From NCBI GenBank assembly GCA_032718475.1, contig JAUCBJ010007483.1, positions 1 to 60,119 of the forward strand: a stretch of 60,119 bases of DNA, given 5' to 3'. The translations under genes were made by a program, and so were the position numbers. The stretch's first letter is position 1. Every line of letters starts with the position of its first letter. Below the pieces are notes generated by a model. It saw only the letters and a program-made list of their open reading frames with translations. It made no database searches and was not told the origin of the DNA. This document shows positions 4,631 through 53,040 of this stretch, in pieces. This stretch comes from Nemertoderma westbladi. Lineage: Eukaryota; Animalia; Xenacoelomorpha.

Positions 4631-4820
4631 GAAATATATTGCGGTTTTTTTGTAAAAATTCGGACTTATGGTGTTTTGCCAAAACAAAGGGGAACACCAT
4701 TTTCTGGTATTATCCCGTAACTATACGATAGTTGCGGGGTATTGCCTAGAAAACAAGGTATCCTCAATTAGGCAAAACACCATAAGTCCGAATTTTTACA
4801 AAAAACACGCAAAATATATC
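4631..4820. repeat. ~190-bp imperfect palindrome
   Basis: tgtaaaaattcggacttatggtgttttgcc pairs with ggcaaaacaccataagtccgaatttttaca, centred near 4726. Confidence 0.9.
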
Positions 4821-10579: not shown

Positions 10580-10657
10580 CCGCTCCCAGAAAATGGGATT
10601 TGAGTCTATAAAATATACAAAATCACAGTTTCTAATATACGTAAATACTCTAAACAG

Positions 10658-13600: not shown

Positions 13601-13702
13601 GGTTGGATCGGCTTCACCGCATATCAAGCTATCCCCAAATACTTGTAAAGGTAGAGTATATCGCTCCCTGATACCAAGATCATCTTCTATCAACTCCGTC
13701 AT
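10658..13702 (-). pseudogene. Element 1 accessory ORF2: Cys/His-rich zinc-knuckle protein with basic C-terminus, interrupted
   Basis: ORFs 13325-13702, 11174-12433 and 10658-11065 share one frame. The TAA at 11174 is GAA in element 2. Motifs include CHHCQLKGHASFDC (CX2CX4HX4C), CAYC and CRLC, and the end KKLRKRHPRKKD. Confidence 0.75.
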
Positions 13703-15339
13703 ATCTGCTATCTGAGTTTATTAATATTGTAATGAGTTTATGTTTAGGCGAGTGGGCGGCGCTGCCTACCTCTCTTCGCCCCGGACAGTGGGATTCTCAG
13801 CGCCGATGTACCGTCGTCGCGGAGTTTACGCCAACATGTAGCAACATCACGACAACGATAACCGGCACAAGTCACTCCACTGTCCGTCCCAAAGGCTTGA
13901 ATCCACTTTAGGTTCTATCTATAGGAGAGTTGGGTTACTTTCACAATTGCGACTAGCTACTGTAAACATACTTTAGCAGTAACATTCACCTATAAACGCA
14001 CAAATTCCACACAACTGTCACCAATTGTACACATACAGGCCATTTTTCCGTTAGTCAGTGCCTTCCAGAATGTCACGTTATTACTGTGTATCCTTGGATA
14101 CTAACAGTGTGCTATGTATTCTCTATGCTATGCAATGGGACAAGCTTTCTATTGTTCTTTTAACTTGCTTCTAATTCTAGCGTGGGTGTTGCTATGGTGA
14201 CATTATGGAATGCTAGCGGTAGAATTAGGGTAATTCTCATGCATACAGATCTGGAATGCTATTTAATAATAATTCTTTAATTGTCAATATCCTCTTTATG
14301 TATGATTTTATTAATTTTATCGGCTATTGACTATATGTTGGAGATTCTCGCACTCTAATACACTCAATAGGATGAATCTCCGCTCCCATGATCTATTAAT
14401 TAATGGAATTTTGGGAATGTTATAAATTGCACAAAATGACAATTTATAAAATTCATTTAAAATATGAATTTAAATTTATTCCCGTGAATTTTATTATTTG
14501 ATGTTAAAATTGACACAATTTTTATTCCAGAGCATGTCTGGGGACTGAGGATCCTTAATTCTATAAAATTGTCCTTTAAGAGTATCGGTAAACGCTGCGA
14601 TATCTTAATTGACTAGAAATTTAAAGGATCTGAATTTTACAGAATTTTACTAAATATTAAATTAATATTTAAGATGGGCACCGATTTATTCCAGAACTTG
14701 TCTGGGGACGTTAACCACTGATTCTAGAATTTGTCTTTCAAGTATATCGGTGGGTGCCGCGATATCTTAATCGACTAGAATTACAGATGGTCAAAGGTTT
14801 AACAGATTTATTTGCGTTTTATGCTACTGTTAGAGGGACATCACGCTACTATATGTATTATTTAATATAAGGTAGAAGAGCAATATCGCACGAAGCAATG
14901 TCAGTGTGAAGAGGCAAGTCGTTTCCAAGGTCTACCCAGAGCTTGGTTTAGCTGAGACACGAGGATCTGAACTTTGCATTCCTAATACTCTGCCTACCAA
15001 TAATACTTAAATATAGTAGGAGCTTTATTGTACTTTAATAAGTACGGACATTTCATCTTACTGTAGTCACGTATTTATAATATGATACGGACACACGGAC
15101 AGTAAGGAAAGAGAAAAATAATTATTTTCTCGCCGTCGCACTAAATGTATATTATACGTAATTACGTACGTAATAAACACTAATATATTGCACTAATCTA
15201 CTAAATAATCACTAAAATAACATTCTACTAAATAAAATTAAAGAAAACGATTATAATAAAATTACATAATAATACATACATAAATATAAAATACAAACAA
15301 ATATAAAATGATATAGTCACACGCCCACTCCATATGTTA

Positions 15340-18300
15340 TTACGTTATGGAGTCCCTAGATATTTGTCGGATTAGGGAAGTGGTCGTAGGAAGAGTATCT
15401 TGCCTTCCATAGTTTCCGGACAGTTTTCGGTCTCTTTCCAGTAAACATAAACGACCAGCTAGGCGATTGAGTTGTTGTGTTACTTTCTCCGCTCCCTTGG
15501 CCTGTCTAATCTCCGCCGGGGTAAGATGAGGAGGCCATTCTTCTTCTTCTTTACTTAAGAAGTCGGATCCACCTAACCAGCCTGGAGTATCTATCAGTTC
15601 TTGAGGAGTTGCTCCTCTGGAAGCGATGTCGGCTGGATCAATCGTCCCAAGGCAATGTCTCCATTGATCTACATTGGAGTTAATATCGTCATTATCTGAG
15701 GAGTATGGTGTTCCCTCAGTTGGATCGTCCACATCACTGCTCTCCACTTCCCATTCGTTTACTTGGTATACCTGTTGTTGAGGTAATCTCTCTTTGAGAG
15801 TTCTACGGGAAGGGCCAGTGAAGTACCAACCTACTCTAGTTCTTACCGCATAGGTTTGTAGTGGCTGCGGTTGAGCAGGCCGTTTCTCCAATGTCTCGAG
15901 CGCCTCATGCGCGTTTTGGCCGATGAGTATTTGCACTCCAGGATAATCTGTCTGGAATCGAGGTATCTTAAGATGTTGGATGCTCTCATCCTCGTCCCAA
16001 TTATAAAGGTCTGCTTGGGTAGTAGCGAAGTTCTTTATAGCCACCATTTTTACCGACCTTATACCTTGTGCTCCTAATTTATCCTGGGGGGTGGACAACA
16101 CACCTACATAGTAGTCTGCCGTTAGGGTAGATTTCCAAACCTGCATAATTCCTGACATATTTAATTTAGTCCGGAATTTGGGTTGTCCAGCAAAGATATC
16201 TTCGGCTAGTTCTTGATCGATGAATGTTCCTGTGCTGCCGGAGTCAAGGAGGGCGTTCACTATGTAACTTTTGTTAGGACCATGAACTCTTACCTGCACT
16301 ACAGGAAATTCTCTGATTCCTACGTTGGAAGTTGGAGCTTTCCAAGATGGTTGTCTGGCAAAAGTAGTTGGGGGGAACTCATTGTCGGTGTCCTTTTCAT
16401 AAGTAAGTGCTCGATACACTGAGGTATTTATTAGGTAACAGGATTCGTTGGCGTCGGAGAATTCGTCCGTATAGAATCCTTCCATCTCAGACTCTTGATC
16501 AGTGTCATTTACATCACTGAATTGGACATGTAGTTCGGGCTCACTTACCTGACTCGGGTTGTCTCGTTCGAACTCACTGTGTAACAAGATGTGATGTTTC
16601 GCGCCACACTTTGCACACTTTACGTCGGAGTAACAGGTTCGCCGTTGGTGTCCTGATCTGAGGCAATTATAGCATAACCGCTTATTCCACAGGACTGTAC
16701 GTCTGTCTACAGGGGATTTCTTTAGAAATTCAGCACACGCACTCAAACGGTGGGGCCCGTCGCACAGCGCACATTTTGGTTGGATGTTACTCACCTTACT
16801 TAACGTTACCTTTGGGTAACGTTATGCACTCTCGTTCTTTCTTCGGGCTTTCTTCCGTGAATTCTCTTAGGAGACGTAGGAGGAGTTGTTGTTACCTGTT
16901 CTCTCCTGTCACTGGTTCGAGACTTGTATTTACTTACGTCTTTATAGGTCTTGTTGTCATAGTAAGATTTTGCTGTGTCTTTCCCGCTGTCCTCTTCTTG
17001 AGAAGCTTGGCTTTCGCCGTCGTCAGTATAACACACTGGTATTATCCTTCTCCTAGAAGGGAGTTTCTCACTTACCTTATTTTCCGATGTTTTCTCTCTG
17101 GACTGCTTTATGAGTTGTAATTTTACTTCACTATCTAAGAAGGACATGAGATCAGTCATGGTAGGGCTTCGTCGTTGCTGCTCATTCATATACAACACTT
17201 TCTTGTCCCGGCGTGTACATACTCCACCCTTTGGTAAAGTAGAGACTACTGCTCCAATAACCATGGAACTCTGATATTCATGAGACTTACCTAACCAGTC
17301 CAATTGTCTACAGATCTCTTGAATCTCATCGGAAAACTCTATAATCCCGCTACTAAGGAAGTGTCGGGGGGCTACTAATTTGGCATACAAATACTTAGCT
17401 ATGTTATCCTTGTTACCATACCTGATGTTTAATGTATCCCAAACTTGTCTTAATCCTTCTGGATGTCCAATAAACTTTAACGCCATTAACTTGGGAGGTC
17501 CTTCCAAGCACTTGATGAGGAACCTAAGTTTCTCTCCGTTAGATAGTACAGAGTTCTGTATGCTATCTTTGTAATATTCATTGAAAGGTAACCATTTCAT
17601 CTCATCTCCATTGAATTTGACGATCTCTCCCACTTTGACCACTTGGCGGGCTTCTGTTCTAGCCATCTGACGCGTAAAGCTTTCTTGGGCCATCGTGTTA
17701 TTTAATATCGAATTATCGGTATATAAATTTCTCGGATCATTATCAGGTCTATAGGGAATATCATTAATAACAGGTCTATAATCACCCTTAATAGGGTTTG
17801 CTATAGGAGTTTCTACTTCACTAGCAGTATAGATGCGTGTAGGCTCCACACCTTGCGCATGTAATACTTCAGACCTAACAGGTTGACACAATGTTACAGG
17901 GGGTATTGGTATGCCCTTTTGTATATTGACTAACTTGTCGCGTTCCAGTGCGATACTTTGCTGCACTTCTTGCAACTCTGCTCTACCTTCCCTTACTGTT
18001 CCCTTAAGCTGGTGGACAGTCTCCTGCATCTGTCCGAGCAGGAGATTCATCCCCCGCCGTCCCTCCTCTACCCACTCGACCCCCGAAGCGGGAGTCGCCA
18101 ACATTGTAGCGGGCTGACGTGGGACGACGGGAGACAAATCTTTGATTTCTCTCTCAGCTTCCAGGACAGGAATATTCTCATGGACTGTTCTACCGGGTAC
18201 AGGCAGTGTAGTACTGTGTAAAGGGAACTTAGAGTTAAGCTCTGGAAGTACAGGGGTCTCTAGCACAGGTGTGACTTTTGGAACGACAGGCCTAATTATT

Positions 18301-20015
18301 TCAGGCTCATCAACTATTGTTGGGAGTCTTTTGACCTGAATAGTTTGGTATGTGGATTCCGTACTACCTAAGTCTGCGCTAGCTAGCTGTCTTCTAACAG
18401 CTGGGGGCAAATCAGGCAATTTGTGACGGTGAGCTGTTTTTCTACGCCTGCTTAGACGAGATCTATTTCCTCCGCCTTCAGGATCGGTGGTTTCGCTTTC
18501 CTCCGATGATGTGTATCCCTGGCGTTTGGGAGTAGATCGTCTCATCATCTGCATTTGACTAGCAGTTAACTGTTTATTTATGTTGTCTTGCGTCTCTTGC
18601 AGATTTTCCAACTCCAGTTGGGTAGTCTGCTCAGACGCTCTCCGTTCTGCTTCTGCCACTGCCCTTTCCGCCTTTGCTTCTGCCGCCGCTGCCTTTCTTT
18701 TTGCTTCTGCTTCTGCCGCTGCTGCCCTTGCTGCTATTCTTTCTGCTTCTACTTCTGCCGCCGCTGCTTTTCTTTCTGCTTCTACTTCTGCCGCCGCTGC
18801 TTTTCTTTCTGCTTCTGCTTCTGCCGTAGCCGCCGCCTTTTGTTCCTCTATCCGTCTTTTCTTTACTTTTTCTTCTTGGACTCTAGCGAGGCGGAGTTTT
18901 TCATCAAATTCTGCTTGGTTAGCAGCTAACATTTCAGCATCGATTGAATCCAACACACGCTGGGTTCCTTCACTATTGGGGGAAAGTCCAGACAGCCGTC
19001 TCCTCAACTCTTCGTCTCCTAGGAATCGCTGATAGTCGGACAGATAAATGTCTATGGCGTCTCTCGTTCGTGGTTTCTCTGAGGTCTCTTCGCCTTCCAC
19101 TTGAGAAAGGGTGGCATCGGTTGGTTCTTCATAAGTTAGTCTCTCAGACAGCTGGGATTTCCACTGGCCCGTTTCTTGTACTTTGCGACCTACCCGCTGG
19201 AACCAAGTTTTGACAGCAACCTGCAGCGACGTGTCCTGTCTTCTTTTGGAAGTTTCCTCAAAAGCTGATAAGATTAGTCGAATGCGTAGGGTTCTTTCGC
19301 GTACTTGATATAGCAGTTCTTCCTGCTCTTGAGGTCCTAGGGGTTGTCGAAACAGTTGTTCTTCTAATCGCTCTAAGGAGCCGAAGAATCCCTACACATA
19401 TCCTGCTGACGACCTCTTCCAAACAGCTGGATCCATCGTATCTTTAGCCACTCCCATCCTGTATATATCTTCCCAAGTAGCCTCGGACAGATCTAATGGG
19501 AGTCCGGGTCCGGGAAAGTTCCATTGTGACTCGACAATAGACATCAATTCTTCCCTGGCGTATCCCGCATAATTATCTTGGGTCGCTCGCTTATTTCTCA
19601 CCCAATCTGCTTGATGTTCCTCCACCGCAATCAATATAGTTGTTAGCACTGCGGCAGGAAGGGTGAGAAGGGGGTCCGAGTAGGCTTTAGCCGTCGTCTG
19701 CACTCCGCGTTCGGGGGTCAGCTCTACAGTATCCGAACTACTGGAGCTATCGGATCGCTGGGAACAAGTTTCTTGACTAGGATGTTGCTGCTGTTGGACA
19801 GCTGGTTCCTGGTTCCGTTTGACTTGGGCCCGAGTGCCGATGATAGACCTACGGTGTTGGATTAGCTTAGGGTCTGATACTACTACTGGAGGGATGACCT
19901 TTCTTTCAGTAGGAGGTGAGCTGAACTCCTTTCTTAATCGCTCAACACTCCTATCTGTGTCACAGATGGTTGTATCGATTAGGCTGTCTGACAGGTTTTG
20001 CTGAGTGTCAGACAT
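15340..20015 (-). pseudogene. gag: Element 1 Gag-protease ORF, disrupted
   Basis: Colinear with the intact 44954-49603 ORF. CAG>TAG stop at 19392-19394 and a frameshift near 16800. Confidence 0.92.
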
Positions 20016-21329
20016 GTTTAGCTATACAGTTGAATGCTTACTGCTATAGTTACAGTTAAAGCAAGTCTAGTAATTCAGTATGACCGTTGGCCTAGTACCG
20101 GTAATTTATTGCAGTATATTAGAATACCGGTATGCACTTATAATATATATAAGTATTGTAAACTAGTTTTGTCACAGAGTACCGGTATATAAATTTAGCA
20201 CAAATATATATAAATATATAATAGGCCTATCGTGAATACCGGTATACAGCTTACACTTATAGTATATATAAGTATAATTATGAACTAGAATTATTACAGA
20301 ATACCGGTATGATTTCAGCTCAAATTTATAGAAATAAATATAATAAGCCTATGGTAAATACCGGTATGTCAATTATTTTAGAATAATTGAATTTCTGAAT
20401 ATTTTAGGGTTACTTGGTTACTTTAACTTACTTTAATACCGTTATTTAAGCAGTAGTCCAACTGATATTGAGACCTAGTTGTTGTATGGCAGGCCTACTA
20501 TTTATAAATCGTTTGAGTTGATTTATAATAGATATATACCCGTTTAAAATGGGTTTTTGTCAATATTTGAAATAAATGTTATTATTTCTGGGGGGTCACT
20601 ACACAGAAGCTGTGCGCTCTCAGTGAAGTGCTATTTATTTGACACTAAAACTGATAATTCTAATTTACCTAAGTTACTTAATACTACAAATTACTTACGA
20701 TACGGGAGATTAATTCTCTAATTAAACACAACAAAAATATTACGTACGAATTTTTAGGGTAATTTTACAGGAAGTCTACAAACCAGTCTAACAAAGGGTT
20801 AGAATTCTGGTTATTACAACGGACAGGGTACTACGGTATTTGAAAATAATAAGTAGTAGTAAATATATTGCACTGTCCAGATAGGAAAATACCACCGCCT
20901 GACGACCTATAACCGTATCGCTATAGGTACTACGTTATGTATCACGGAGTGTTCCTACCTAGAAGTTAATTACTGCGGACTACCAGATCCAGCGTGCCTA
21001 TTAACCACTTTACAACACAAATATACTGCCCACACACTAATTACTTTCGGAAAGCACTGTACACTAAACCCTAAATTAGGTACAAGTACTAGTACAACAA
21101 ATAATCAGTAGTTAAATATACTTGAACAGTTAAAAGAACCACGGCATCTGCTGGAGTGACCAGAGCACAAAGTCACCAGTCTTGTCCTACGCCAAGCAGC
21201 CCGTGTAGTACCGGGGTTAATTTAACTATAACGGTATGTGTAACAAACACAATTACTGTAGGAATAAACTTGGGGACATGTATGTTGCGAATAATCGCAT
21301 AAACTCTGAACAATAAATATTACGCTACC

Positions 21330-21900
21330 CGTACAGAATACTCAAACAGAATACAAACCAAACGCTGGCAGACTACCACCAAGCCTAAATAAACTACAGT
21401 ATGTGTAGATTCCAAAATGGTTAGTTAGTATGCGTTCTAACACGGTAGTACGACTTATTCTTTAAGAGGGGATTGACATTACAGCTATGGCTGCCCCAAC
21501 TTACTAACTGGCACTCTATCGGACAAACTCTACACACGCAGCAATCTCTTCAGACCTAATAATAGCTAGACAACAATCCAGCCTACAAAATATCTGAGTA
21601 ATAACTATTACAGTACCTGAACAGACCACACAAACAAACACAGGCCAAAACGCTGGCAGAATACTGTCAAGCCTAAATAAACCACAGTATGTGCAGATTC
21701 CAAAATTGTTAGTTAGTATGCGTTCTAACACGGTAGTACGACTTATTCTTTAAGAGGGGATTGACCTTACAGCTATGGCTGCCCCAACTTACTAACTGGC
21801 ACTCTATCGGACAAACTCTACACACGCCGTAATCTCTCCAAACCCAACAACAATCTAACAGCAGTCCGGCCTACAATTATCTGAACAATCTGAGCAGACT
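21330..21900. repeat. ~288-bp tandem duplication in the element 1 leader (also ~50930-51500 in element 2)
   Basis: The block aaacgctggcaga...gctgccccaacttactaac occurs twice. Confidence 0.9.
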
Positions 21901-22054
21901 TACACGTCTTCAGCTCAATATTAACTTACATGTAAATAAAACCGACAGAAATAAGTAAAATCTCAATAAAAAATCAGGGCTGCAGTCCCTGATTAAATAC
22001 TAAGACCTACCGGTATACAATAATCAAAATCGAATAATACTAATGTACTTATAC

Positions 22055-22185
22055 TGGAAGTACCGGTTAGGACAGTTGGGCCTACGGACCTACAGAAGTA
22101 CCGGTTCTGGCAGTTGGACCTACGGACCTACAGCAGTACCGGTTCTGGCAGTTGGGCCTACTGACCTACAGAAGTACCGGTTCAG
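22055..22185. repeat. 38-bp tandem repeat, about 3.5 copies, in the leader next to the 5' LTR (also 51652-51782)
   Basis: taccggtt at 22061, 22099, 22137 and 22175. Confidence 0.9.
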
Positions 22186-22237
22186 GTTTACCGGTCGACC
22201 GGTACTTTCAACTTTATTGCTTACTGCAATAAAGTCA

Positions 22238-22248
22238 ATGACTGTTAT
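22238..22248 (-). promoter_or_regulatory. Non-tRNA primer-binding site candidate, element 1
   Basis: Abuts the 5' LTR, lacks TGG, and is 10/11 complementary to the LTR 11-mer at 23016-23026. Confidence 0.6.
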
Positions 22249-23531
22249 TGTACGCGCTTTTGAAGACCTTTAGCAGTTTAACCTGCCAAAATTTATATGT
22301 CTTTTGGTTTATAAATATACTTTAGAAGATGACAAATATTTAATACCAATAAACACAACATTAGCAGAAGCCAGCCTAGTGCGCGTCTATTCACCCGCTG
22401 GATATTCCCGGGAGACTGGATTCTGAGGGCTTAGATTATTATTGCAGTGTAAGCTTACTGTACTGTATTATTCGATTGATCGTTAATAATTAATTTCTGA
22501 CTAATATTATTCACTTTCGGGAAATATTAACAGTTCCTTTAGGACGTGGCGCTCTATCTAAGTAAACAGAGATATGACTTATACTAATCACAACGGTAAG
22601 TCGGTAAGGCTTAAGATTCACGTATGAGGCGCATTCTTTAGGAAATGCTTAGTTATCAGTCACAATCAGGCACTCTACCGGTAACATACAATACTGCTCA
22701 CTAATTTGCCGACCGTCAATGATTTTTATCATATATAAAGAGAACAGCAACGGACCAATGTAGTGCTTATCAAATAGCATTAAATTCACTACAATACACA
22801 ATAATGTAAGTCGCAATCGCTATATATAACCCGTCTCTCTAACCTGTAGTGTATCAAGAAAATTGGGAAATTTGGGTTCTTTATATATGTTCTCCAAATA
22901 ATGTTCAACCAAACACAATAGTAAACAGCAGTATAATAATGTATATTGAACCGATAATATAAAAATAGAAACCAGTTGTTATGAATTGATATATGATGTG
23001 GACTGTTATGAACTGATAACAGTTATACGCTCTATAATTTAAGCCTACTAATGTTTCTTCTAAAGTATGAAACGAATTGATTCTAGAGCCGTTGTTCCTG
23101 GCCTAGATAGCAAAAACACAAAGTATCAAGAAAAAACAGTAAGACTGAACAGTGAACACTCTCCTTATGATCGGCCGAAAAGCTACACGTCGACAGGAAA
23201 AATCGCTCTGATTGGCTCAAGCCAAACAAAGAACCATGCGTCCAATGGCTGTTTCCATGTCAGCAACCAGCTGTTAGATGTCGTAATATGAATCATCACG
23301 GCTAAGCTGTGAAAGGTATTTGGTGCATTGCAGGTTTTTTGCCTTACCATGTCCGCTAAAACACGTATATAGCAGAATGACTTTTATGTCCGTTAAAACA
23401 CCTGTAACGGTACCTTGCGGGCGAGGGGAATATATATACAGTTAGAGAACCTTTTTAGAGTATTCCAGCGCCTGGGGGGAAACTGGATTGCGAAGCAAAA
23501 GGGCCAGTTATATCCCACAGAAGCTTTTACA
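22249..23531 (-). repeat. 5' LTR of element 1 (1283 bp)
   Basis: Differs from the 3' LTR by about a dozen substitutions (by eye) and a 7-bp insertion. Confidence 0.95.
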
Positions 23532-25711: not shown

Positions 25712-25869
25712 GATTTCTGGTTGGTGTTAGTTGGTGGCACTGATTCCGGTGTGACTGAGGATTTCCATAGATCCATTTCGATTTCCAATGTTTGGTCTGG
25801 GCTGCGCTGAGAAGCGGTGAAGAGTCTCATCAGTTCATTAGTTTACCTGTTAAAAGTCATATGTCTTAA

Positions 25870-40612: not shown

Positions 40613-41805
40613 TGTTCGCGCTTTTGAAGACCTTTAGCAGTTTAACCTGCCAAAATTTATATGTCTTTTAGTTAATTAACACACCTTTAGCATACGACAA
40701 TATTTTATGCTAATAAACAAAACATTAGCCGAAGCCAGCCCATGCGCGATCATTCACCCGATGGATACACCCGGGAGACTGAATTCGGATGCTTAGATTT
40801 TATTATTGCAGTGTAAGGTTGCAGTGTAAGCCTACTGTATTATTCGATTGATCGCTAATATGTAATTTCTGACAGATATTATTAACTTTCGGGAAATATT
40901 AACAGTTCCTTTAGGACGTGGCGCTCTATCTATTTAAACAGAGCTAGGACTTATACTAAACGCAACGATAAGGCTTATGATTAAAGTATAAGGCGCATTC
41001 TTTAGGAAATGCTTTGTTACCAGTCACATCACACTCACAATCATGCACACTATTCTGCCGACCGTCAGTATATTTGATCACACATAAAGAGAACAGCAAT
41101 TGACTCAGGTAGTGTCTACTAAATAACATTAGATTCAATACACACCACATTGATATAAATCGCAATTGTTATATATAGCCTGTCTCTCTAACCTGTAGTG
41201 TATCAAGAAATTGGGAAACTTGGGTGATTTATCAATATTCTCCAAATGACAATATTTCATCAACAAATCGATACAATTAATAACTGACGGTAAATAGCAG
41301 TACAAACAATATGATTAGTGCAGTTAAATTAAGTGAGGTAACACCGCCGGTAACAGTTATACTTTCTATAATCTAAGCAGTTTTTGCTAGAGTTGTTCCA
41401 AAAGCCGGTGTTATGGCGAAAAATGGGAACACAACAACAGAATCCTATAAAGAATCATATGACTACATGACTATACGAGGATACCAACTACCCTTATTCC
41501 CCGAAGCTCCCGTCCAACACAGAGGATGAGCATACAGATAGGAAATTCAGTTCAGTAGCTCTGGGATAGGTCAAAATCAACGCCCACTCAAATTCTATTG
41601 GCAGATACGGACAGCAGGGCTGAGGCAACCTCCCTAAGCTGGTTGGCCGATCGAACAGCACCCAGATCCCTTCGCACAGCAAATCAGCCAATCAGCCGGT
41701 AGCTTGCATTATTCTAGCTAGATATCCCTTTTTTAGAGTATTCAGCGACTGGGGGGAACTGGTTAGCAAAGCAAATGAATCAGTTATCCCATAAAAGCTT
41801 TTACA
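40613..41805 (-). repeat. 3' LTR of element 2
   Basis: TGT...ACA, matches 51848-53040 with few substitutions, and has the same GGGAGCGG tract adjacent. Confidence 0.95.
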
Positions 41806-41883
41806 CCGCTCCCAGAAAATGGGATTTAAGTCTATAAAATATACAAAATCACAGTTTCTAAAATATAAAAATACTCTAAACAG

Positions 41884-43333
41884 TTAGTCTTTCTTGCGCG
41901 GACGGCGTTTACGCAGTTTTTTAAAGCTAGCCAGAGTCTTTTTCTCTTTGGGGCGAGCCACTTTACAAGGAGGGCTATAACTCCTGGGTGAAGGGTGCAA
42001 TATGATTGCATCAGAGGGTATAGGATTATGGTCGGTGTATCCGCCAGTCGAAGTGCCGAGTTGATTGACATCAACGTCGGGGGAGAGGGGTCTAACGGCC
42101 TTTAGAGCGCGTTTTAGGACAGCCGCTCTTACGGGTCCTTTACGAGTGGTCTGAACGAGAGCCGTAGGTGGACCATAGGCAGTTAGAAACTTCCTGGGTT
42201 TAATGGTTCTTTCCAACTCGCGTTCGCGGGCTCGGTATTCGTAAGGCCGTCGATATACTTCCTGTAACTCGGGGTATGAGTTAACAAATAAGTCTCCATA
42301 GTCCGGGTCCTGACGGATATAACTGATTAAGTTATAGGAATGAAGGTTGCTAGGATTAACCCTCCTGAGAAATTTGCGTACGAACTTGGTTGAAATACAT
42401 TCTCCGACGCGCTTCAGTAGTTCGTAACTCGATATGCGTGATTTCTGTTCGACAGAAGCGAATAGATAAGGATGGAACGCATAAACTCCTTCGTAAGCGC
42501 GTCCAGGATAATAACGATGGCGCGAATCACAATGTAAATCAGCGTTCGCTTACCAAGCTCTGATGTAACGTAGCGTGATCATTTCATCTACGCTTTCCAA
42601 ATCGTGATTAAAAAGGGCAATGGAAACTGGCGCGTCCCTTTAGTTGACACTGGTGACATTGAGTCATAAATTGAGGGCAAACCGCAAAAATGTGCAAGTT
42701 ATTGAGTCTGTAATACGCGCAATAAATTTCCATCGTCGGTTGTTCGTGGAAATAGGAACAGCGGACGTTTGTGTCCATGGGCGTAACATGGTCTCTCGAT
42801 GCGCATAACCGACAACGTTGCCGAGAAACATAGTTGGCATGGCGATAATCGTACGCAGTGAGACACTGTGGACCTTGATATCATTCTAGGAGGTAATCGT
42901 TGTCGTTGTTCCGGGCGCGATAGGCTGAATCTCCTCAGATTCTAGGCATATTGGTTCGTCTTCCCAGTCTGTTACGAATAGAATTTTCGTGATCTATTCT
43001 CGGTTTATCGTTACGACGCCGCTGGGTATGATATTTAAATAGAACCATTTCCCTTTTGGTGTCTACATCGTCCGTATCATGTAAATCGATAGGATGGCCG
43101 GTAGTTAGGAGGTCAATATACGTATTATTACGATTCGTATAGCGAGCGGTGAATTTTCGATAGTCCAATTCACGCGTAAGTTGCTCTTGGGACATCGGCG
43201 GTTCGATATAGCGACCATCGTCCTCCGTAATGGTTGGATCGGTTTCACCGCGTATCAAGCTATCCACAAATGCTTGTAAAGGTAGAGTATATCGCTCTCT
43301 AATACCAAGGTCATCTTCTATCAATTCCGTCAT
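41884..43333 (-). pseudogene. Element 2 accessory ORF2, internally deleted and frameshifted
   Basis: Homologous to 10658-11680 and 13335-13702. About 1.65 kb is missing at a junction near 42965. Confidence 0.8.
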
Positions 43334-44953
43334 ATCTGCTATCTGAGTTTATTAATATCAGTATGAGATAATATTTAGGCAAGCGGGCGTCGCTGCCTAC
43401 TAGTCTTTGCCCCCGGACAGTGGGTTTCTCAGCGCCGATGTACCGTCGTCGCGGTGTTTACACCAACATGTAGCAACAGCACGACAACGATAACCGGCAC
43501 AAGTCCCACCACTGTCCGTCCCAAAGGCTTGAATCCACTTGAGGTTATCTCGGTAGAGTTAGGGCTACTTTACAATTGCGATTAGCTACTGTAAACACAC
43601 TTTAGTAGTAACATTCACCTATAAACGCACAAATTCCATACAATCATTACTTACTGCACACATGCAGGCCATTTGTCCGTTAATCAGTGTCTTCCAGAAT
43701 GTCACGTTATTACTATGTATCCTTGGATACTAATAGTGCGCTATGTATATTCTTATGCTACGCAATGGGGCAAGCTTTTTATTGTTCCTTTAACTTGCTT
43801 CTAATTCTAGCGTGGGTGTTGCCATGGTGACATTATGGAAAACTAGCGGTAGAATTAGGGTAATTCTCATGCATACAGATCTGGGATGCTATTTAATAGT
43901 AATTCTTTAATTGTCAATATCCTCTTTATGCATGATTTTATAAATTTTATCGGCTATTGACTATATGTTGGAGATTCTCGCACTCTAGTACACTCAATAT
44001 GAATCTCCGCTCCCATGATCTATTAATTACTGGAATTTTGGGAATGTTATAAATTGCACAAAATGACAATTTATGAAATTCATTTAAATATGAATTTAAA
44101 TTTATTCCCGTGAATTTTATTATTTGATGTTAAATTGACACCAATTTTATTCCAGAGCATATCTGGGGACTTAGGATCCTTGATTCTATAAAATAGTCCT
44201 TCTAAGAATATCGGTAAATACTGCGATATCTTAATTGACTAGAAATTTTAAAGGATCGGGATTTTACAGATTTTAATAAATATTAAATTAATATTTAGGA
44301 TGAGCACCGATTTATTCCAGAACTTGTCTGGGGACGTTAACCACTGATTCTAGAATTTGTCTTTCAAGTATATCGGTGGGTGCCACGATATCTTAATCGA
44401 CTAGAATTACAGATGGTCAAAAAGTTTAACAGATTTATTTGCGATTTACGCTACTGTTAGAGGGACATCACGCTACTATATGTATTATTTGTTATAAGGT
44501 AGAAGAGCAATATCGCACGAAGCAATGTCAGTGTGAAGAGGCAAGTCGTTTCCAAGGTCTACCCAGAGCTTGGTTTAGCCGAGACACGAGGATCTGAACT
44601 TTGCATTCCTAATACTCTGCCTACCAATAATACTTTAATATAGTAGTGGCTTTATTGTACTTTAATAAGTACTGACATGTCATCTTACTATAGTCTCGCA
44701 TTTATAATATAATACGGACAGTAAGGAAAGAGAAAAATAAATATTTCTTGCCGTCGCACTAAATATATTGTAAGTAATTAAATACGTAATAAACACTAAT
44801 ATATTGCACTAATTTACTAAATATTCTAAAATAACATTCTACTAAATAAAATTAAAGAAAACGATTATAATAAAATTACATAATAATACATACATAAATA
44901 TAAAATAAAAACAAATATAAAATGATATAGTCACACGCCCACTCCATATGTTA

Positions 44954-47900
44954 TTACGTTATGGAGTCCCTAGATATTTGTCGGATTAGGGAAGTGGTCG
45001 TAGGAAGAGTATCTTGCCTTCCATAGTTTCCGGACAGTTTTCGGTCTCTTTCCAGTAAACATAAACGACTAGCTGGGCGATTGAGTTGTTGTGTTAGTTT
45101 CTCCGCTCCCTTGGCCTGTCTACTCTCCGCCGTGGTAAGATGAGGAGGCCATTCTTCTTCTTCTTTACTTAAGAAGTCGGATCCACCTAACCAGCTTGGA
45201 GTATCTATCAGTTCTTGAGGAGTTGCTCCTCTGGAAGCGATGTCGGCTGGATTAATCGTCCCAAGGCAATGTCTCCATTGATCTACATCGGAGTTAATAT
45301 CGTCATTATCTGAGGAGTATGGTGTTCCCTCAGTTGGATCGTCCACATCACTGCTCTCCACTTCCCATTCCTTTACTTGGTATACCTGTTGTTGAGGTAA
45401 TCTCTCTTTGAGAGTTCTACGGGAAGGGCCAGTGAAGTACCAACCTACTCTAGTTCTTACCGCATAGGTTTGTAGTGGCTGCGGTTGAGCAGGCCGTTTC
45501 TCCAATGTCTCGAGCGCCTCATGCGCGTTTTGGCCGATGAGTATTTGCACTCCAGGATAATCTGTCTGGAATCGAGGTATCTTAAGATGTTGGATGCTCT
45601 CATCCTCGTCCCAATTATAAAGGTCTGCTTGGGTAGTAGCGAAGTTCTTTATAGCCACCATTTTTACCGACCTTATACCTTGTGCTCCTAATTTATCCTG
45701 GGGGGTGGACAACACACCTACATAGTAATCTGCCGTTAGGGTAGATTTCCAAACCTGCATAATTCCTGACATATTCAATTTAGTCCGGAACTTGGGTTGT
45801 CCAGCAAAGATATCTTCGGCTAGTTCTTGATCGATGAATGTTCCTGTGCTGCCGGAGTCAAGGAGGGCGTTCACTATGTAGCTTTTGTTAAGACCGTGAA
45901 CTCTTACTTGAACTACAGGAAATTCTCTGATTCCTACGTTGGAAGCTGGAGCTTTCCAAGATGGTTGTTTGGCGAAAGTAGTTGGGGGAAACTCATCGTT
46001 GATGTCCTTTTCGTAAGTAAGTGCTCGATACACTGCGGTATTTATTAGATAACAGGATTCATTGGTGTCGGAGAATTCGTCAGTATAGAATCCTTCCATC
46101 TCAGACTCTTGATCAGTGTCGTTTACGTCACTGAATTGGACATGTAGTTCGGGCTCACTTACCTGACTCTGTCTGTCTCGTTCGAACTCACTGTGTAACA
46201 AGATGTGATGTTTCGCGCCACACTTTGCACACTTTATGTCGGAGTAACAGGTTCGCCGTTGATGTCCTGGTCTGAGGCAATTATAGCATAACCGCTTGTC
46301 CCACAGGACTGTACGTCTGTCTACAAGGGATTTCTTTAGAAATTCAGCACACGCACTCAAACGGTGGGGCCCGTCGCACAGCGCACATTTTGGTTTGATG
46401 TTACTCACCTTAACTTGGTTAACGTTATGCAATCTCGTTCTTTCTTCGGGCTTTCTTCCGTGAATTCTCTTAAGAGACGTAGGAGGAGTTGTTGTTACCT
46501 GTTCTCTCCTGTCACTGGTTCGAGACTTGTATTTACTTACGTCTTTATAGGTCTTGTTGTCATAGTAAGATTTTGCTGTGTCTTTCCCGCTGTCCTCTTC
46601 TTGGGAAGCTTGGCTTTCGCCGTCGTCAGTGTAACACACCGGTGTTACTCTTCTCCTAGAAGTGGGTTTCTCACTTACCTTATTTTCCGATGTTTTCTCT
46701 CTGGACTGCTTGATGAGTTGTAGTTTTACTTCACTATCTAAGAAGGACATGAGATCAGCCATGGTAGGACTTCGTCGTTGTTGTTCATTCATGTACAACA
46801 CTTTCTTGTCCCAGCGTGTACATACTCCACCCTTTGGTAAAGTAGAGACTACGGCTCCAATAACCATGGAACTCTGATATTCATGCGACTTACCTAACCA
46901 GTCCAGTTGTCTACAGATCTCTTGAATTTCATCGGAAAACTCTATAATCCCGCTACTAAGGAAGTGTCGGGGGGCTACTAATTTTGCATACAAATACTTA
47001 GCTATGTTATCCTTGTTACCATACCTGATGTTTAATGTATCCCAAACTTGTCTTAATCCATCTGGATGTCCAATAAACTTTAACGCCATTAACTTGGGAG
47101 GTCCTTCCAAGCACTTGATGAGGAATCTAAGTTTCTCTCCGTTAGATAGTACAGAGTTCTGTATGCTATCTTTGTAATATTCGTTGAAAGGTAACCATTT
47201 CATCTCATCTCCATTGAATTTGACGATCTCTCCCACTTTGACCGCTTGGCGGGCTTCTGTTCTAGCCATCTGACGCGTAAAGCTTTCTTGGGCCATCGTG
47301 TTATTTAATATCGAATTATCGGTATATAAATTTCTCGGATCATTATCAGGTCTATAGGGAATATCATTAATAACAGGTCTATAATCACCCTTAATAGGGT
47401 TTGTTATAGGAGTTTCAACTTCACTAGCAGTATAGATGCGTGTAGGCTCCACACCTTGCGCATGTAATACTTCAGGCCTAACAGGTTGACACAATGTTAC
47501 AGGGGGTATTGGTATGCCCTTTTGGATATTGACTAATTTGTCGCGTTCTAGTGCGATACTTTGCTGCACTTCTTGCAACTGTGCTCTACCTTCCCTCACT
47601 GTTCCCTTAAGTTGGTGGACAGTCTCCTGCATCTGTCCTAGCAGGAGATTCATCCCCCGCCGTCCCTCTTCTACCCACTCAACCGCCGAAGCGGGAGTCG
47701 CCAACATAGTAGCGGGCTGACGCGGGACGACGGGAGACAAATCTTTGATTTCTCTCTCTGCTATCCGGACAGGGATATTCTCTTGGACTGTTCTACCGGG
47801 TACAGGCAGTGTAGTACTATGTAAAGGGAATTTAGAGTTAAGCTCTGGAAGTACAGGGGTCTCTAACACAGAAGTGACTTTGGGAACGACAGGCCTAATT

Positions 47901-49603
47901 ATTTCAGGCTCATCAACTATTGTAGGGAGTCTTTTGACCTTAATACTTTGGGCTGTAGGTTCTATACTACTCAAGTCTGTGCTAGCTAGCTGTCTTCTAA
48001 CAGCTGGGGGCAAATCAGGCAATTTGCGACGGTAAGATGTTTTTCTACGCCTACTTAGATGAGATCTATTTCCTCCGCCTTCAGGATCGGTGGTCTCGCC
48101 TTCCTCCGAGGATGTGTATCCCTGGCGCTTGGGAGTAGATTTTCTCATCATCTGCATTTGATTAGCAGTAAACTGTTTATTTATACTGTCTTGCGTCTCT
48201 TGCAGATTTTCCAACTCCAGTTGGATAGTCTCCTCAGAAGCTCTCCGTTCTGCTTCTGCCACTGCTGCTTTTCTTTCTGCTTCTGCTTCTGCCGCCTTTC
48301 TTTCGGCTTCTGCTTCTGCTTCTGCCGACTTTCTTTCGGCTTCTGCTTCTGCTTCTGCCGACTTTCTTTCGGCTTCTGCTTCTGCCGACTTTCTTTCGGC
48401 TTCTGCTTCTGCCGCCGCTGCTGCTGCCACCTTTCTTTTCTCTATCCATTCTTTCTTTACTTGTTCTTCTCGGACTCTAGTGAGGCGGAGTTTTTCATCA
48501 CATTCAGCTTGGTTTGCAGCTAACATTTCGGCATCGATTGAGTCCAACACAAGCTTGGTTCCTTCACTATTAGGGGAAAGTCCAGACAGCCGTCTCCTCA
48601 ACTCTTCGTCTCCTAGGAATCGCTGATAGTCGGACAAATAAATGTCGATAGCGTCTCTAGTTCGCGGTTTCTCGGCGGTCTCTTCGCTTTCCGCTTGAGA
48701 AAGGGTGACATCAGTTTGTTCTTCATAGGGTGATCTCTCAGCCAGCTGGGATTTCCACTGGGCCGTTTCCTGTACTTTGAGATCTACCCGATGTAACCAA
48801 GTTTTGACAGCAACTTGCAGCGACGTGTCCTGTCTTCTCTTGGAAGTTTCCTCAAAGGCTGAGAGGATTAGTCGAATGCGTAGGGTTCTTTCGCGTACTT
48901 GGTATAGCAGCTCTTCCTGCTCTTGAGGTCCTTGAAGTTGTCGAAACAGTTGTTCTTCCAATCGCTCCAAGGAGCCGAAGAATCCCTGCACATATCCTGC
49001 TGCCGACCTCTTCCAAACAGCTGGATCCATTGTATCTTTAGCCACTCCCATCCTGTGTATATCTTCCCAAGTAGCCTCGGACAGATCCAACGGGAGTCCG
49101 AGTCCGGGAAAGTTCCATTGTGACTCGACAATAGACATCAATTCTTCCCTGGCGTATCCCGCATAATTATCTTGGGTCGCTCGCTTATTCCTCGCCCAGT
49201 CGGCTTGATGTTCCTCCACCGCAATGAATATAGTAGTTAGCACTGCAGCAGGAAGGGTAAGAAGGGGGTCCGAGTAGACTGTAGCAGCCATCTGCACTCC
49301 GCTTTCGGGGGTTAGCTCTACCGTATCTGAACTACTGGAGCTATCGGGTCGCTGGGAAGTAGGTTCTTGACCAAGATGTTGCTGCGATGGGACAACTGCC
49401 TCTTGGTTCCATTTGACCTGTGCCCGAGTGCCTATGATGGACCTATGGTGGATTAGCCTAGGGTCTGATACTACTGGAGGGATGACCTTTCTTGCAGTAG
49501 GAGGTGAGCTGAACTCCTTTCTTAATCGCTCCACACTCCTATCTGTGTCACAGATAGTTGTATCGATCAGACTGTCTGACAGGTTTTGCTGAGTGTCAGA
49601 CAT
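44954..49603 (-). CDS. gag: Intact 1549-aa Bel/Pao Gag-aspartic protease fused to an RNase H C-terminal remnant
   Basis: Coiled-coil N-terminus, DUF1759-like KFNGDEMKW...EKLRFLIKCLEG, triple zinc knuckle (CALCDGPHRLSAC, CYNCLRPGHQRRTC, CAKCGAKHHILLH), protease ALLDSGS/ILIG/RTRVGW, then QWRHCLGTINPADIASRG...WP. Confidence 0.93.
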   Translation of the reverse strand: MSDTQQNLSDSLIDTTICDTDRSVERLRKEFSSPPTARKVIPPVVSDPRLIHHRSIIGTRAQVKWNQEAVVPSQQHLGQEPTSQRPDSSSSSDTVELTPESGVQMAATVYSDPLLTLPAAVLTTIFIAVEEHQADWARNKRATQDNYAGYAREELMSIVESQWNFPGLGLPLDLSEATWEDIHRMGVAKDTMDPAVWKRSAAGYVQGFFGSLERLEEQLFRQLQGPQEQEELLYQVRERTLRIRLILSAFEETSKRRQDTSLQVAVKTWLHRVDLKVQETAQWKSQLAERSPYEEQTDVTLSQAESEETAEKPRTRDAIDIYLSDYQRFLGDEELRRRLSGLSPNSEGTKLVLDSIDAEMLAANQAECDEKLRLTRVREEQVKKEWIEKRKVAAAAAAEAEAERKSAEAEAERKSAEAEAEAERKSAEAEAEAERKAAEAEAERKAAVAEAERRASEETIQLELENLQETQDSINKQFTANQMQMMRKSTPKRQGYTSSEEGETTDPEGGGNRSHLSRRRKTSYRRKLPDLPPAVRRQLASTDLSSIEPTAQSIKVKRLPTIVDEPEIIRPVVPKVTSVLETPVLPELNSKFPLHSTTLPVPGRTVQENIPVRIAEREIKDLSPVVPRQPATMLATPASAVEWVEEGRRGMNLLLGQMQETVHQLKGTVREGRAQLQEVQQSIALERDKLVNIQKGIPIPPVTLCQPVRPEVLHAQGVEPTRIYTASEVETPITNPIKGDYRPVINDIPYRPDNDPRNLYTDNSILNNTMAQESFTRQMARTEARQAVKVGEIVKFNGDEMKWLPFNEYYKDSIQNSVLSNGEKLRFLIKCLEGPPKLMALKFIGHPDGLRQVWDTLNIRYGNKDNIAKYLYAKLVAPRHFLSSGIIEFSDEIQEICRQLDWLGKSHEYQSSMVIGAVVSTLPKGGVCTRWDKKVLYMNEQQRRSPTMADLMSFLDSEVKLQLIKQSREKTSENKVSEKPTSRRRVTPVCYTDDGESQASQEEDSGKDTAKSYYDNKTYKDVSKYKSRTSDRREQVTTTPPTSLKRIHGRKPEERTRLHNVNQVKVSNIKPKCALCDGPHRLSACAEFLKKSLVDRRTVLWDKRLCYNCLRPGHQRRTCYSDIKCAKCGAKHHILLHSEFERDRQSQVSEPELHVQFSDVNDTDQESEMEGFYTDEFSDTNESCYLINTAVYRALTYEKDINDEFPPTTFAKQPSWKAPASNVGIREFPVVQVRVHGLNKSYIVNALLDSGSTGTFIDQELAEDIFAGQPKFRTKLNMSGIMQVWKSTLTADYYVGVLSTPQDKLGAQGIRSVKMVAIKNFATTQADLYNWDEDESIQHLKIPRFQTDYPGVQILIGQNAHEALETLEKRPAQPQPLQTYAVRTRVGWYFTGPSRRTLKERLPQQQVYQVKEWEVESSDVDDPTEGTPYSSDNDDINSDVDQWRHCLGTINPADIASRGATPQELIDTPSWLGGSDFLSKEEEEWPPHLTTAESRQAKGAEKLTQQLNRPASRLCLLERDRKLSGNYGRQDTLPTTTSLIRQISRDSIT

Positions 49604-51836
49604 GTTTAGCTATACGGTTGAATGTCTACTACTATAGTTTCAGTTAAAGCAGGTCTGGTAATTCAGTATGACCGCAAGCCTAGCGATTTATTACCTATAC
49701 CGTTACTCGGTGTAACGTGATATATATACAATATATTAGAATACCGGTATGCTTATAATATATATATAAGTATTATTACAGACTAGATTTGTCACAGAGT
49801 ACCGGTATATAATTTTAGCACAAATATATATAAATATATAATAGGCCTATCGTGAATACCGGTAGACAGCTTACACTTATAGTATATATAAGTATAATTA
49901 TGAACTAGAATTAATTACAGAATACCGGTATGATTTCAGCTCAAATTTATAGAAATAAATATAATAAGCCTATGGTAAGTACCGGTATGTCAATTATTTT
50001 TAGAATAATTGAATTTCTGAATATTTTAGGGTTACTTGGTTACTTTAACTTACTTTATTACCGTTATTTAAGCAGTAGTCCAACTGATATTGAGACCTAG
50101 TTGTTGTATGGCAGGCCTACTATTTATAAATCGTTTGAGTTGATTTATAATATATATATACCCGTTTAAATGGGTTTTTGTCAATATTTGAAATAAATGT
50201 TATTATTTCTGGGGGGTCACTACACAGAAGCTGTGCGCTCTCAGTGAAGTGCTATTTAGTTGACACTAAAACTGATAATTCTAATTTACCTAAGTTACTT
50301 AATACTACAAATTACTTACGATATGGGTGAGATTAATTCTCTAATTAAACACAACAAAATATTACGTACGAAATTTTTAGGGTAATTTTACAGGAAGTCT
50401 ACAAACCAGACTAACAAAGGGTTAGATTACTGGTTATTACAACGGACAGGGTACTACGGTATTTGAAATAATAAGTAGCAGTAAATATATTGCGTTGTCC
50501 AGATAGGAAAATACCACCACCTGACGACCTATAACAGTATCGCTATAGGTACTACGTTATGTATCACGGAGTGTTCCTACCTAGAAGTTAATAGTGCTAA
50601 CGAATGTGCCTATCAACCACTTTACAACACAAATATACTAATTACTTCGGAAAGCACTGTACACTAAACCCTAAATTAGGTACAAGTACCGGTATAACCA
50701 ATAATCAGTAGTTAAATATACTTGAACAGTTAAAAGAACCACGGCATCTGCTGGAGTGACCAGAGCACAAAGTCACCAGTCTTGTCCTACGCCAAGCAGC
50801 CCGTGTAGTACCGGGGTTAATTTAACTATAACGGTATGTATAACAAGCACAATTACTGTAGGAATAAACTTGGGGACATGAATGTTGCGAATAATCGCAT
50901 AAACTCTGAATAATAAATATTACGCTACCCGTACAGAATACTCAAACAAAATACAAACCAAACGCTGGCAGACTACCACCAAGCCTAAATAAACTACCGT
51001 ACGTGTAGATTCTGAAATTGTTAGTTAGTATGCGTTCTAACACGGTAGTACAACTTATTCTTTAAGAGGGGATTGACCTTACAGCATATGGCTGCCCCAA
51101 CTTACTAACGGCACTTTGTCAGACAAACTCCACACACCCAGCAATCTCTTCAGACCTAATAATAGCTAGACAACAATCCAGCCTACAAAATATCTGAGTA
51201 ATAACTATTACGGTACCTGAACAGACCACACAAACAAACACAGGCTAAAACGCTGGCAGACTACGATCAAGCCTAAATAAACTACAGTATATGCAGATTC
51301 TGAAACAGTTAGTTAGTATGCGTTCTAACACGGTAGTACGACTTATTCTTTAAGAGGGGATTGACCTTACAGCATATGGCTGCCCCAACTTACTAACGGC
51401 ACTTTATCAGACAAACTCTACACACGCCGTAATCTCTCCAAACCCAACAACAGTCAGACAGCAGTTCAGCCTACAATTATCTGAACAATCTGAACAGACT
51501 TACACGTCTTCAGCTCAATATTAACTTACTAGGAAATAAAACCGACAGAAATAAGTAAAATCTCAATAAAAACCAGGGCGGCCGTCCCTGATAAATACTA
51601 AGACCTACCGGTATACAATAATCAAATTCGAATAATACTAATGTACTTATACAGCAGTACCGGTTAGGACAGTTGGGCCTACAGACCTACAGAAGTACCG
51701 GTTCTGGCAGTTGGACCTACGGACCTACAGCAGTACCGGTTCTGGCAGTTGGGCCTACTGACCTACAGAAGTACCGGTTCAGGTTTACCGGTCACTACGG
51801 TATTTTGCAACCTTATTGCTTACTGCAATAAGATCG

Positions 51837-51847
51837 ATAACTGTTAC
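51837..51847 (-). promoter_or_regulatory. Non-tRNA primer-binding site candidate, element 2
   Basis: ataactgttac is the exact reverse complement of gtaacagttat at 52585-52595 in the LTR. Confidence 0.65.
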
Positions 51848-53040
51848 TGTTCGCGCTTTTGAAGACCTTTAGCAGTTTAACCTGCCAAAATTTATATGTC
51901 TTTAAGTTAATTAACACACCTTTAGCATACGACAATATTTTATGCTAATAAACAAAACATTAGCCGAAGCCAGCCCATGCGCGATCATTCACCCGATGGA
52001 TACACCCGGGAGGCTAAATTCGGATGCTTAGATTTTATTATTGCAGTGTAAGGTTGCAGTGTAAGCCTACTGTATTATTCGATTGATCGCTAATATGTAA
52101 TTTCTGACAGATATTATTAACTTTCGGGAAATATTAACAGTTCCTTTAGGACGTGGCGCTCTATCTATTTAAACAGAGCTAGGTCTTATACTAAACGCAA
52201 CGATAAGGCTTATGATTAAAGTATAAGGCGCATTCTTTAGGAAATGCTTTGTTACCAGTCACATCACACTCACAATCATGCACACTATTCTGCCGACCGT
52301 CAGTATATTTGATCACACATAAAGAGAACAGCAATTGACTCAGGTAGTGTCTACTAAATAACATTAGATTCAATACACACCACATTGATATAAATCGCAA
52401 TTGTTATATATAGCCTGTCTCTCTAACCTGTAGTGTATCAAGAAATTGGGAAATTTGGGTGATTTATCAATATTCTCCAAATGACAATATTTCATCAACA
52501 AATCGATACAATTAATAACTGACGGTAAATAGCAGTACAAACAATATGATTAGTGCAGTTAAATTAAGTGAGGTAACACCGCCGGTAACAGTTATACTTT
52601 CTATAATCTAAGCAGTTTTTGCTAGAGTTGTTCCAAAAGCCGGTGTTATGGCGAAAAATGGGAACACAACAACAGAATCCTATAAAGAATCATATGACTA
52701 CATGACTATACGAGGATACCAACTACCCTTATTCCCCGAAGCTCCCGTCCAACACAGAGGATGAGCATACAGATAGGAAATTCAGTTCAGTAGCTCTGGG
52801 ATAGGTCAAAATCAACGCCCACTCAAATTCTATTGGCCGATACGGACAGCAGGGCTGAGGCAACCTCCCTAAGCTGGTTGGCCGATCGAACAGCACCCAG
52901 ATCCCTTCGCACAGCAAATCAGCCAATCAGCCGGTAGCTTGCATTATTCTAGCTAGATATCCCTTTTTTAGAGTATTCAGCGACTGGGGGGAACTGGTTA
53001 GCAAAGCAAATGAATCAGTTATCCCACAAAAGCTTTTACA
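51848..53040 (-). repeat. 5' LTR of element 2
   Basis: TGT...ACA, near-identical to 40613-41805. Confidence 0.95.

Follow-up and report, generated by a model that had tools for sequence, protein, structure and literature searches.

Reverse transcription primed by an element's own RNA has been reported or predicted for the Tf1/sushi and Tcn1 groups of the gypsy superfamily and for TAR, Houba and Osr-1 of the copia superfamily (passages of PMC6317226, PMC4600332, PMC5341516 and PMC6934838). The annealing, cut and extension of Tf1 serve here as the model for analogy, as set out in parts of PMC7175516 and PMC10085805. The ICTV profile of the Belpaoviridae describes an 18-nt tRNA-Arg or tRNA-Gly primer-binding site (PBS) and priming by host tRNA, and it calls the replication of BEL/Pao elements poorly understood (PMC8742986). 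No report of BEL/Pao self-priming was found in titles and the beginnings of abstracts, and a prior note outside this scope is possible. A term search of three BEL/Pao papers (PMC3118150, PMC554778 and PMC6238403) gave no PBS or tRNA text, PMC10886601 contains no text on self-priming, and according to a passage of PMC3601003 BEL/Pao LTRs were left out of the LTR modelling in that study.

The stretch of DNA analyzed in this study (the window) comprises 60,119 nucleotides of contig JAUCBJ010007483.1 of Nemertoderma westbladi. It holds two sister LTR elements (elements 1 and 2) and a solo LTR of the same family (solo C), all on the minus strand (Table 1). Unlike the elements in the ICTV description, those in the window have no 18-nt tRNA site, and their pol is deleted. 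It is probable that these elements prime reverse transcription with a stretch of RNA derived from their own LTR and not with a tRNA. The first-pass annotation had proposed such tRNA-independent self-priming for a BEL/Pao lineage, and the proposal is supported here by contigs of the family and by 14 other families with a swap control.

Anatomy and coding content of the elements

Elements 1 and 2 are young non-autonomous BEL/Pao copies. Paired TG...CA LTRs, a purine-rich tract (PPT) and a short target duplication are all present, and the insertions are recent because the two LTRs of each element are still nearly identical (Table 1). The internal regions of the two elements are 92% alike, so they are not independent observations. 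The family is highly repeated in the host, with 14,281 contigs of run X1 aligning to a 1.6-kb solo LTR stretch. U3 is a mosaic, and its middle in element 2 (52960-52650) is unrelated to that of element 1 (23450-23100) and solo C (2050-1760). Additionally, the 2.2-kb leader of both elements contains 288-bp and 38-bp tandem repeats (21360-21884 and 22057-22183; 50960-51484 and 51650-51780).

Table 1. Positions of the features discussed, numbered along the window
Feature	Position	Strand	Remarks
Element 2, non-autonomous BEL/Pao LTR retrotransposon	40613..53040	-	5-bp target duplication AGACT
Element 2 5' LTR	51848..53040	-	1193 nt, TG...CA; 1186/1193 identity to 3' LTR
Element 2 3' LTR	40613..41805	-	holds second 11-mer copy, 41360-41350
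PPT before element 2 3' LTR	41806..41813	-	purine-rich; identical in element 1 (10587-10580)
Element 2 ORF	44954..49600	-	1548 aa; Gag (DUF1759), triple Cys-His box, aspartic protease, post-RNase H remnant
Element 2 11-mer at primer-site position	51837..51847	-	GTAACAGTTAT; no TGG
Element 2 LTR 11-mer, candidate self-primer 3' end	52585..52595	-	ATAACTGTTAC; exact complement of GTAACAGTTAT
LTR-internal site predicted to pair with positions 7-12 from 11-mer start	52250..52260	-	alternative fold
Predicted hairpin directly after PBS	51808..51836	-	compensatory changes preserve the stem in element 1
Predicted U5 hairpin	51869..51888	-	stem identical in elements 1, 2 and solo C; PBS unpaired in local fold
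TATA-like motif (52684) and initiator-like motif (A at 52659)	52655..52684	-	candidate upstream start
Element 1, sister copy of element 2	9304..23531	-	5-bp target duplication CAGTC
Element 1 5' LTR	22249..23531	-	1283 nt; against 3' LTR (9304-10579) 1265/1276 and a 7-nt indel
Element 1 11-mer at primer-site position	22238..22248	-	ATAACAGTCAT; PBS position 9 mismatched to partner
Element 1 LTR 11-mer	23016..23026	-	ATAACTGTTAT; 10/11 complement of ATAACAGTCAT
Second Cys/His-rich ORF, sense strand	10658..13717	-	in pieces before 3' LTR; element 2 copy at 43348-41884
Solo LTR C, same family	976..2124	-	74-77% alike; 5-bp target duplication; variant 11-mer at 1688-1678

The Gag domain of element 2 was recognized as PF03564 (E 8e-12), and three Cys-His boxes are found in the translation (CX2CX3HX4C, CX2CX4HX4C, and CX2CX3HX4H with an HH doublet). 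A triple Cys-His box together with an LLDSG...LIG protease has been described for Pao-like elements (in a passage of PMC554778). Beyond this protease the ORF skips ahead to a short post-RNase H motif, after which it ends, so that the protease is what remains of the PR-RT-RH-IN pol of BEL/Pao and the rest is deleted but for that motif. Homologous proteins carried PF05380 throughout (26 of 26 matches, 10 of 10 representatives scanned), were all BEL/Pao polyproteins, and had best local identities of 21-42%. Ty3/gypsy chromovirus ancestry, which would be expected of a Tf1/sushi element, does not apply, since every relative scanned is BEL/Pao.

When four BEL/Pao polyproteins were searched against the window by tblastn, RT, RNase H and integrase were all missing. 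The first-pass annotation was silent on autonomy, and this has to be corrected: all three activities are absent from both elements, which are therefore non-autonomous and require an autonomous partner. In element 1 the Gag-protease frame is interrupted twice, a stop codon occurring near 19393 and the reading frame shifting near 16810. No longer, autonomous relative was found among proteins of 2710-5000 aa, which is weak evidence, and no close relative was found among representatives. The second Cys/His-rich ORF occupies the env position and is broken in both element copies; neither a Pfam family nor a homolog was found for it.

Other repeats share the window with these elements. A 55-bp satellite of ~92 copies (28658-33757 and 27992-28273) is interrupted by a 360-nt piece that is also present at 35936-36293. 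Two reverse transcriptase fragments on opposite strands at 34716-36974 (RVT_1, one with DUF6451) are not BEL/Pao by tblastn and are probably remnants of other retroelements. A 36-bp tandem array at 57003-58072 is open in several frames, and the Pfam matches found there (Bactofilin, BNR) probably stem from the repeat. Two palindromic elements and an inverted repeat pair with 162-bp subunits (37444-38049, 4628-4823, and 25866-27369 against 39897-38357) are probably non-autonomous DNA transposons.

The 11-nt match, its variation and its predicted folding

The LTR of element 2 ends in ...CGAACA at 51848 and is followed directly by GTAACAGTTAT (51847-51837). It had been claimed that no tRNA-type TGG site follows either 5' LTR, and the letters confirm this; both elements thus lack the 18-nt tRNA-Arg/tRNA-Gly PBS of BEL/Pao. 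The claimed complementarity was also found as described, with 11 of 11 positions in element 2 (51847-51837 against 52595-52585, the next base being unpaired on both sides) and 10 of 11 in element 1 (22248-22238 against 23026-23016). As in Tf1-type elements, the PBS abuts the LTR and is complementary to a stretch of it, and the matched 11-mer lies at the homologous LTR position in elements 1 and 2. In both of them the candidate primer ends in AC or AT and the PBS begins 0-3 nt past the LTR, as in the relatives described below. The 11-mer of solo C ends in AC or AT as well, and the base that follows the 11-mer is C in all three LTR types. When the LTR of element 2 was shuffled with dinucleotides preserved, an 11/11 site appeared anywhere in it in 2 of 5000 shuffles, and the corresponding number for a 10/11 site in element 1 was 123 of 5000. 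Perfect LTR complements were found for 3 of 2990 internal 11-mers in each element.

Two parts of the earlier description needed revision. The 11-mer was thought to mark a single border between conserved and divergent LTR sequence, but it lies at the end of a conserved island of ~30 nt, both flanks of which diverge; conservation becomes steady ~120 nt further along. The covariation of the LTR-proximal pair does exist (G-C in element 2, A-U in element 1), but as an argument it is weakened because the same base covaries with a partner inside the LTR. This second site, ~360 nt downstream of the 11-mer at 52250-52260, has a G/A change that tracks the C/T at position 11 of the 11-mer in all three LTR types, which suggests that the RNA may adopt an alternative fold.

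The contigs of the family were aligned to 51795-51885 (805 from run X1, 284 from X3, 7 from X4 and none from X7). The frequencies are shares of summed depth, which is not copy number, and the variant table covers only differences away from contig ends. Inside the PBS (51837-51847), the sole substitution listed for X1 and X3 was C>T at 51847 (36% and 24% of summed depth, respectively), which is the difference between elements 1 and 2; X4 had one low-depth change, at 51837. Just outside the PBS, 51835 varied at 50-67% and 51836 at 6-21% of depth, and because these neighbors vary so strongly, the conserved block is exactly the 11 pairing nucleotides. The PBS mismatch of element 1 is probably private to that copy, as it is absent from the listed contig variants. 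A variant with an extra A after 51838 accounted for 22% of depth in X3 and 1% in X1 and was seen in one contig of X4; in it the last two pairs would fall out of register, barring a matching change in its LTR.

These data bear on the possibility that the match is a by-product, either of chance or of a near-palindromic transcription factor motif that is present twice, the 11-mer being presumably of the Myb type. The core of the 11-mer is an interrupted palindrome, so that the PBS and the 11-mer are also direct copies at 8 of 11 positions, and a shorter similar site (9/11) occurs at 53022. However, the variable base tracks complementarity and not direct identity, shuffled LTRs rarely reproduce the match, the conserved block in the contigs has exactly the length of the duplex, and relatives keep the arrangement with unrelated letters. 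A by-product is therefore considered very improbable.

Several further observations were made around these sites. Element 1 has a near-copy of the PBS at 23009-23001, 18 nt past the 11-mer start, with which the 11-mer could form a local hairpin, and the equivalent position in element 2 holds a repeat of the 3' half of the 11-mer. A conserved 23-nt U5 motif had no matches in metagenome and viral contigs. At 51853, nine X1 contigs and one X3 contig share the PBS and hairpin and diverge six bases into the LTR, so they have a different U5 end and possibly belong to another subfamily or to the autonomous partner.

Full-length relatives of solo C had been expected to carry a PBS fitting its variant 11-mer. 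No such PBS was seen, as the changes at 51840 and 51842 were not among the variants listed for the family contigs at the 2% level. The 11-mer of solo C pairs poorly with either PBS (-2.7 and -2.4 kcal/mol), and solo C differs from nearly all aligned depth at many places (40 of 289 differences examined). Solo C may have decayed, or it may be too divergent for contigs of its relatives to align. The family contigs diverge from it at 1675-1677, just 3' of the 11-mer, an observation that counts in favor of self-priming.

When the transcript was folded from 52595 with an 80-nt tail, the mean pairing probability predicted for the duplex was 0.96. It fell to 0.61 with a 60-nt tail, to 0.20 in element 1, and to 0.10 or less with a start 30 or 100 nt upstream. 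Support from predicted folds is thus unstable and folding is not decisive, and the low values with upstream starts count against the upstream-start version of the model in particular. Among the predicted R-U5 pairs compared in three sequences (n=141), 10 were compensatory, 11 one-sided and 35 broken. In a comparison with the pretzel structure of Tf1, the U5 end was predicted to pair with the upstream LTR in both elements, with different partners, and the 3' flank formed a local hairpin. Pairing of the U5 motif with the PBS looked possible by eye and was rejected, as U5 folds on itself.

The duplex might be real and yet structural, acting as a packaging or translation switch while another primer is used. 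Such a role would accommodate the second covarying partner at 52260-52250, the structured R-U5 and the position of the 11-mer far from the LTR end. However, the point where the duplex stops coincides with the end of the LTR, as it has to for a primer (0-3 nt in the relatives), and a site for another primer is absent. We regard a purely structural duplex as unlikely and self-priming as the better reading of the match.

Self-complementary primer sites in BEL/Pao relatives

An alignment of 30 BEL/Pao proteins was used to collect 79 metagenome loci. LTR pairs were sought in 41 of them and both ends could be fixed in 7, of which 2 had TGG, 4 were self-complementary and 1 was assigned to neither class. 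A scan for self-complementarity covered 38 loci (37 in a first pass; a second pass under a relaxed rule took in 20, including one not scanned before) and yielded 14 self-complementary families, 3 duplicates of these, 5 TGG loci and 16 loci in neither class (including L075, L014 and L071). In the 14 families, a complement of 10-15 nt begins 0-3 nt past the LTR. The match is contiguous in L007 and L017, and in the other 12 (L001, L005, L011, L016, L019, L037, L042, L054, L056, L059, L073 and L079) it runs across a GT-AG junction in the LTR with a near-consensus donor; L001 and L011 were first seen by eye and scored afterwards. L001, which has the intron, and its close relative L017, which does not, have the last 7 primer bases in common.

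When the non-TGG sites were compared with their own LTRs, 14 of 16 had a match of at least 10 nt, whereas none of 238 pairs with a foreign LTR did. The exceptions were L001, which was missed by the acceptor filter (11 nt when scored separately), and element 1 (8 contiguous nucleotides). With TGG loci included, 3 foreign pairs reached 10 nt. For the eight families of the unconstrained scan, 30 shuffles of each locus reproduced the observed length between 0 and 8 times. All eight matches of that scan end in AC or AT, and in 10 of the 14 relatives the primer stretch is followed by C. One caveat is that 4 of the 14 were found with the AC/AT rule imposed and that the LTR end of 10 was chosen from CA and the match, not from an LTR pair; because these ends are inferred, a selection bias remains. 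The distance from the 11-mer to the LTR end is 702-767 nt in the window LTRs, compared with 46-155 nt in 13 relatives, a difference that counts against self-priming in the window family.

A fragment of a host tRNA or another small host RNA could in principle prime, with the LTR match being secondary. The near-invariant PBS core of the window family is what a host primer would also demand, and the six central bases of the 11-mer equal a tRNA-Asn anticodon loop. Primers made of half tRNAs do exist in copia lineages (a passage of PMC6317226). The window itself contains no tRNA gene. However, each of the 14 relatives has a different PBS that fits its own LTR only, as the swap control indicates, and Rfam gave no significant match over 50800-53100, where two matches (E 1.9 and 3.5) are attributable to chance. 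Priming by a host RNA is accordingly given very little probability, and a self-derived primer remains the preferred reading.

In a tree of RT-RNase H from 46 loci, the TGG and self-complementary loci fell on different sides, with support of 0.996 for the TGG side. The best phmmer matches of the window Gag-protease were L002/L001 and L017. In a Gag-protease tree the window sequence formed a long branch that came out between the self-complementary loci and the TGG loci (support 79/83), and a quick tree placed it in an open node with TGG rows. Its grouping with L001, L017, L007 and L037 was not rejected (AU p 0.22). A splice-built primer was also considered for the window family, but none of the 2191 GT-AG joins in element 2 or the 2778 in element 1 beats the contiguous match, the best of them reaching 10 nt and using a weak donor that lies within the 11-mer. 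For this reason the window family is taken to be an intron-less form, like L017 beside the intron-bearing L001.

Two of the collected loci have peculiarities of their own. L002:1-15890 contains tandem BEL/Pao copies that have LTRs in common and are 100% identical across the repeated 745 nt. The LTR pair of L075 (595-1160 and near 1517) ends without CA and is followed by sequence starting with GT, and a TGG site ~390 nt further on perhaps belongs to a nested element.

Transcript start, proposed priming and comparison with known systems

Each LTR type has an initiator-like motif 23-25 nt after a TATA-like motif, both degenerate, and this pair precedes the 11-mer by 64 nt in element 2, 120 nt in element 1 and 93 nt in solo C. 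In element 1 and solo C a CCAAT precedes the TATA-like motif by 39-46 nt. Among the relatives, clear TATA boxes lie 142 nt (L016) and 171 nt (L005) before the donor, L059 has an acceptor-like tract 8 nt before the donor, and 5 of the 11 spliced cases that were scored have a pyrimidine as the first base of the paired stretch. That the 11-mer forms the first 11 nt of the mRNA, as in Tf1, is doubtful because of the promoter-like motifs 64-120 nt upstream and because the relatives look internally primed. A start at the 11-mer is favored by folding, and the T that precedes it in all three LTR types fits an initiator. On these motifs we lean somewhat towards a start 64-120 nt upstream, with a longer 5' fragment as the primer. 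Conserved splice-site-like motifs (AG/GT) are also present in R-U5 at 52428-52422 and 51882-51876; an intron of about 545 nt between them would shorten the long leader, but with spliced RNA as the template such an intron could not persist in U5.

If priming proceeds as in Tf1, folding of the transcript's 5' region would bring the 11-mer into a duplex with the PBS, with a hairpin on either side. Cleavage behind the terminal AC or AT, made in trans by the RNase H of the autonomous partner, would free a 3'-OH that could then be extended over U5. With an upstream start, the primer would be a longer 5' fragment that anneals through its final 11 nt. Splicing of an LTR intron would assemble the primer stretch in 12 of the 14 relatives, whereas the intron-less window family would carry it ready-made. 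An intron upstream of the cut could persist in the spliced relatives by being copied from the unspliced copy in the 3' LTR. If plus-strand synthesis copies the primer, the PBS and the 11-mer would be homogenised in each cycle, which would also yield covariation. A broader proposal, to which we give an even chance, is that a large branch of animal BEL/Pao elements swapped the tRNA for an internal self-primer ending in AC or AT, usually splice-assembled from an LTR intron, and that the window family is an intron-less form mobilised in trans in which an RNA switch can hide the primer.

If BEL/Pao elements do prime themselves, this would be the third independent origin of self-priming, after gypsy and copia, and it would be in animals. 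Such elements might escape control by tRNA 3' fragments, and they would be invisible to annotation tools that seek a tRNA PBS. Host splicing would gate reverse transcription, unlike in Tf1, if the primer is internal and, in the relatives, splice-built.

The window elements share with the Belpaoviridae (Semotivirus) of the ICTV a Gag with DUF1759, a triple Cys-His box, an LLDSG...LIG protease, a PPT, a 5-bp target duplication and TG...CA LTRs of ~1.2 kb. They share with Tf1 and Tf2 of S. pombe, Tj1, Tosmo1-3 and the Tf1/sushi and Tcn1 groups the lack of a tRNA site, an 11-nt PBS abutting the 5' LTR and its complement in the LTR; Tf1/sushi-type systems also have structured flanks, and the sister families of Tf1/Tf2 and Tosmo likewise have a mosaic U3 (parts of PMC7175516, PMC10085805 and PMC4600332). 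However, the Tf1 group belongs to gypsy, whereas the window family is BEL/Pao and non-autonomous. Unlike the three-duplex pretzel of Tf1, the sequence after the PBS is predicted to fold on itself and not with the LTR, and the 11-mer may be internal, whereas Tf1 uses its first 11 nt. The window family also differs from the Tf1 group in the ~740 nt from primer to LTR end, and its relatives in appearing to build the stretch by splicing. For the TAR lineage, Houba and Osr-1 of plant Ty1/copia, self-priming was predicted because at least 10 nt of the sequence following the LTR match a stretch of the LTR, which puts that evidence on a par with the evidence here; these differ in superfamily and host, and the splice-built form is not mentioned in the passages concerned (PMC6317226). 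The feature in the window is real and likely reflects self-priming, which here would be a variant on a mechanism already known outside BEL/Pao.
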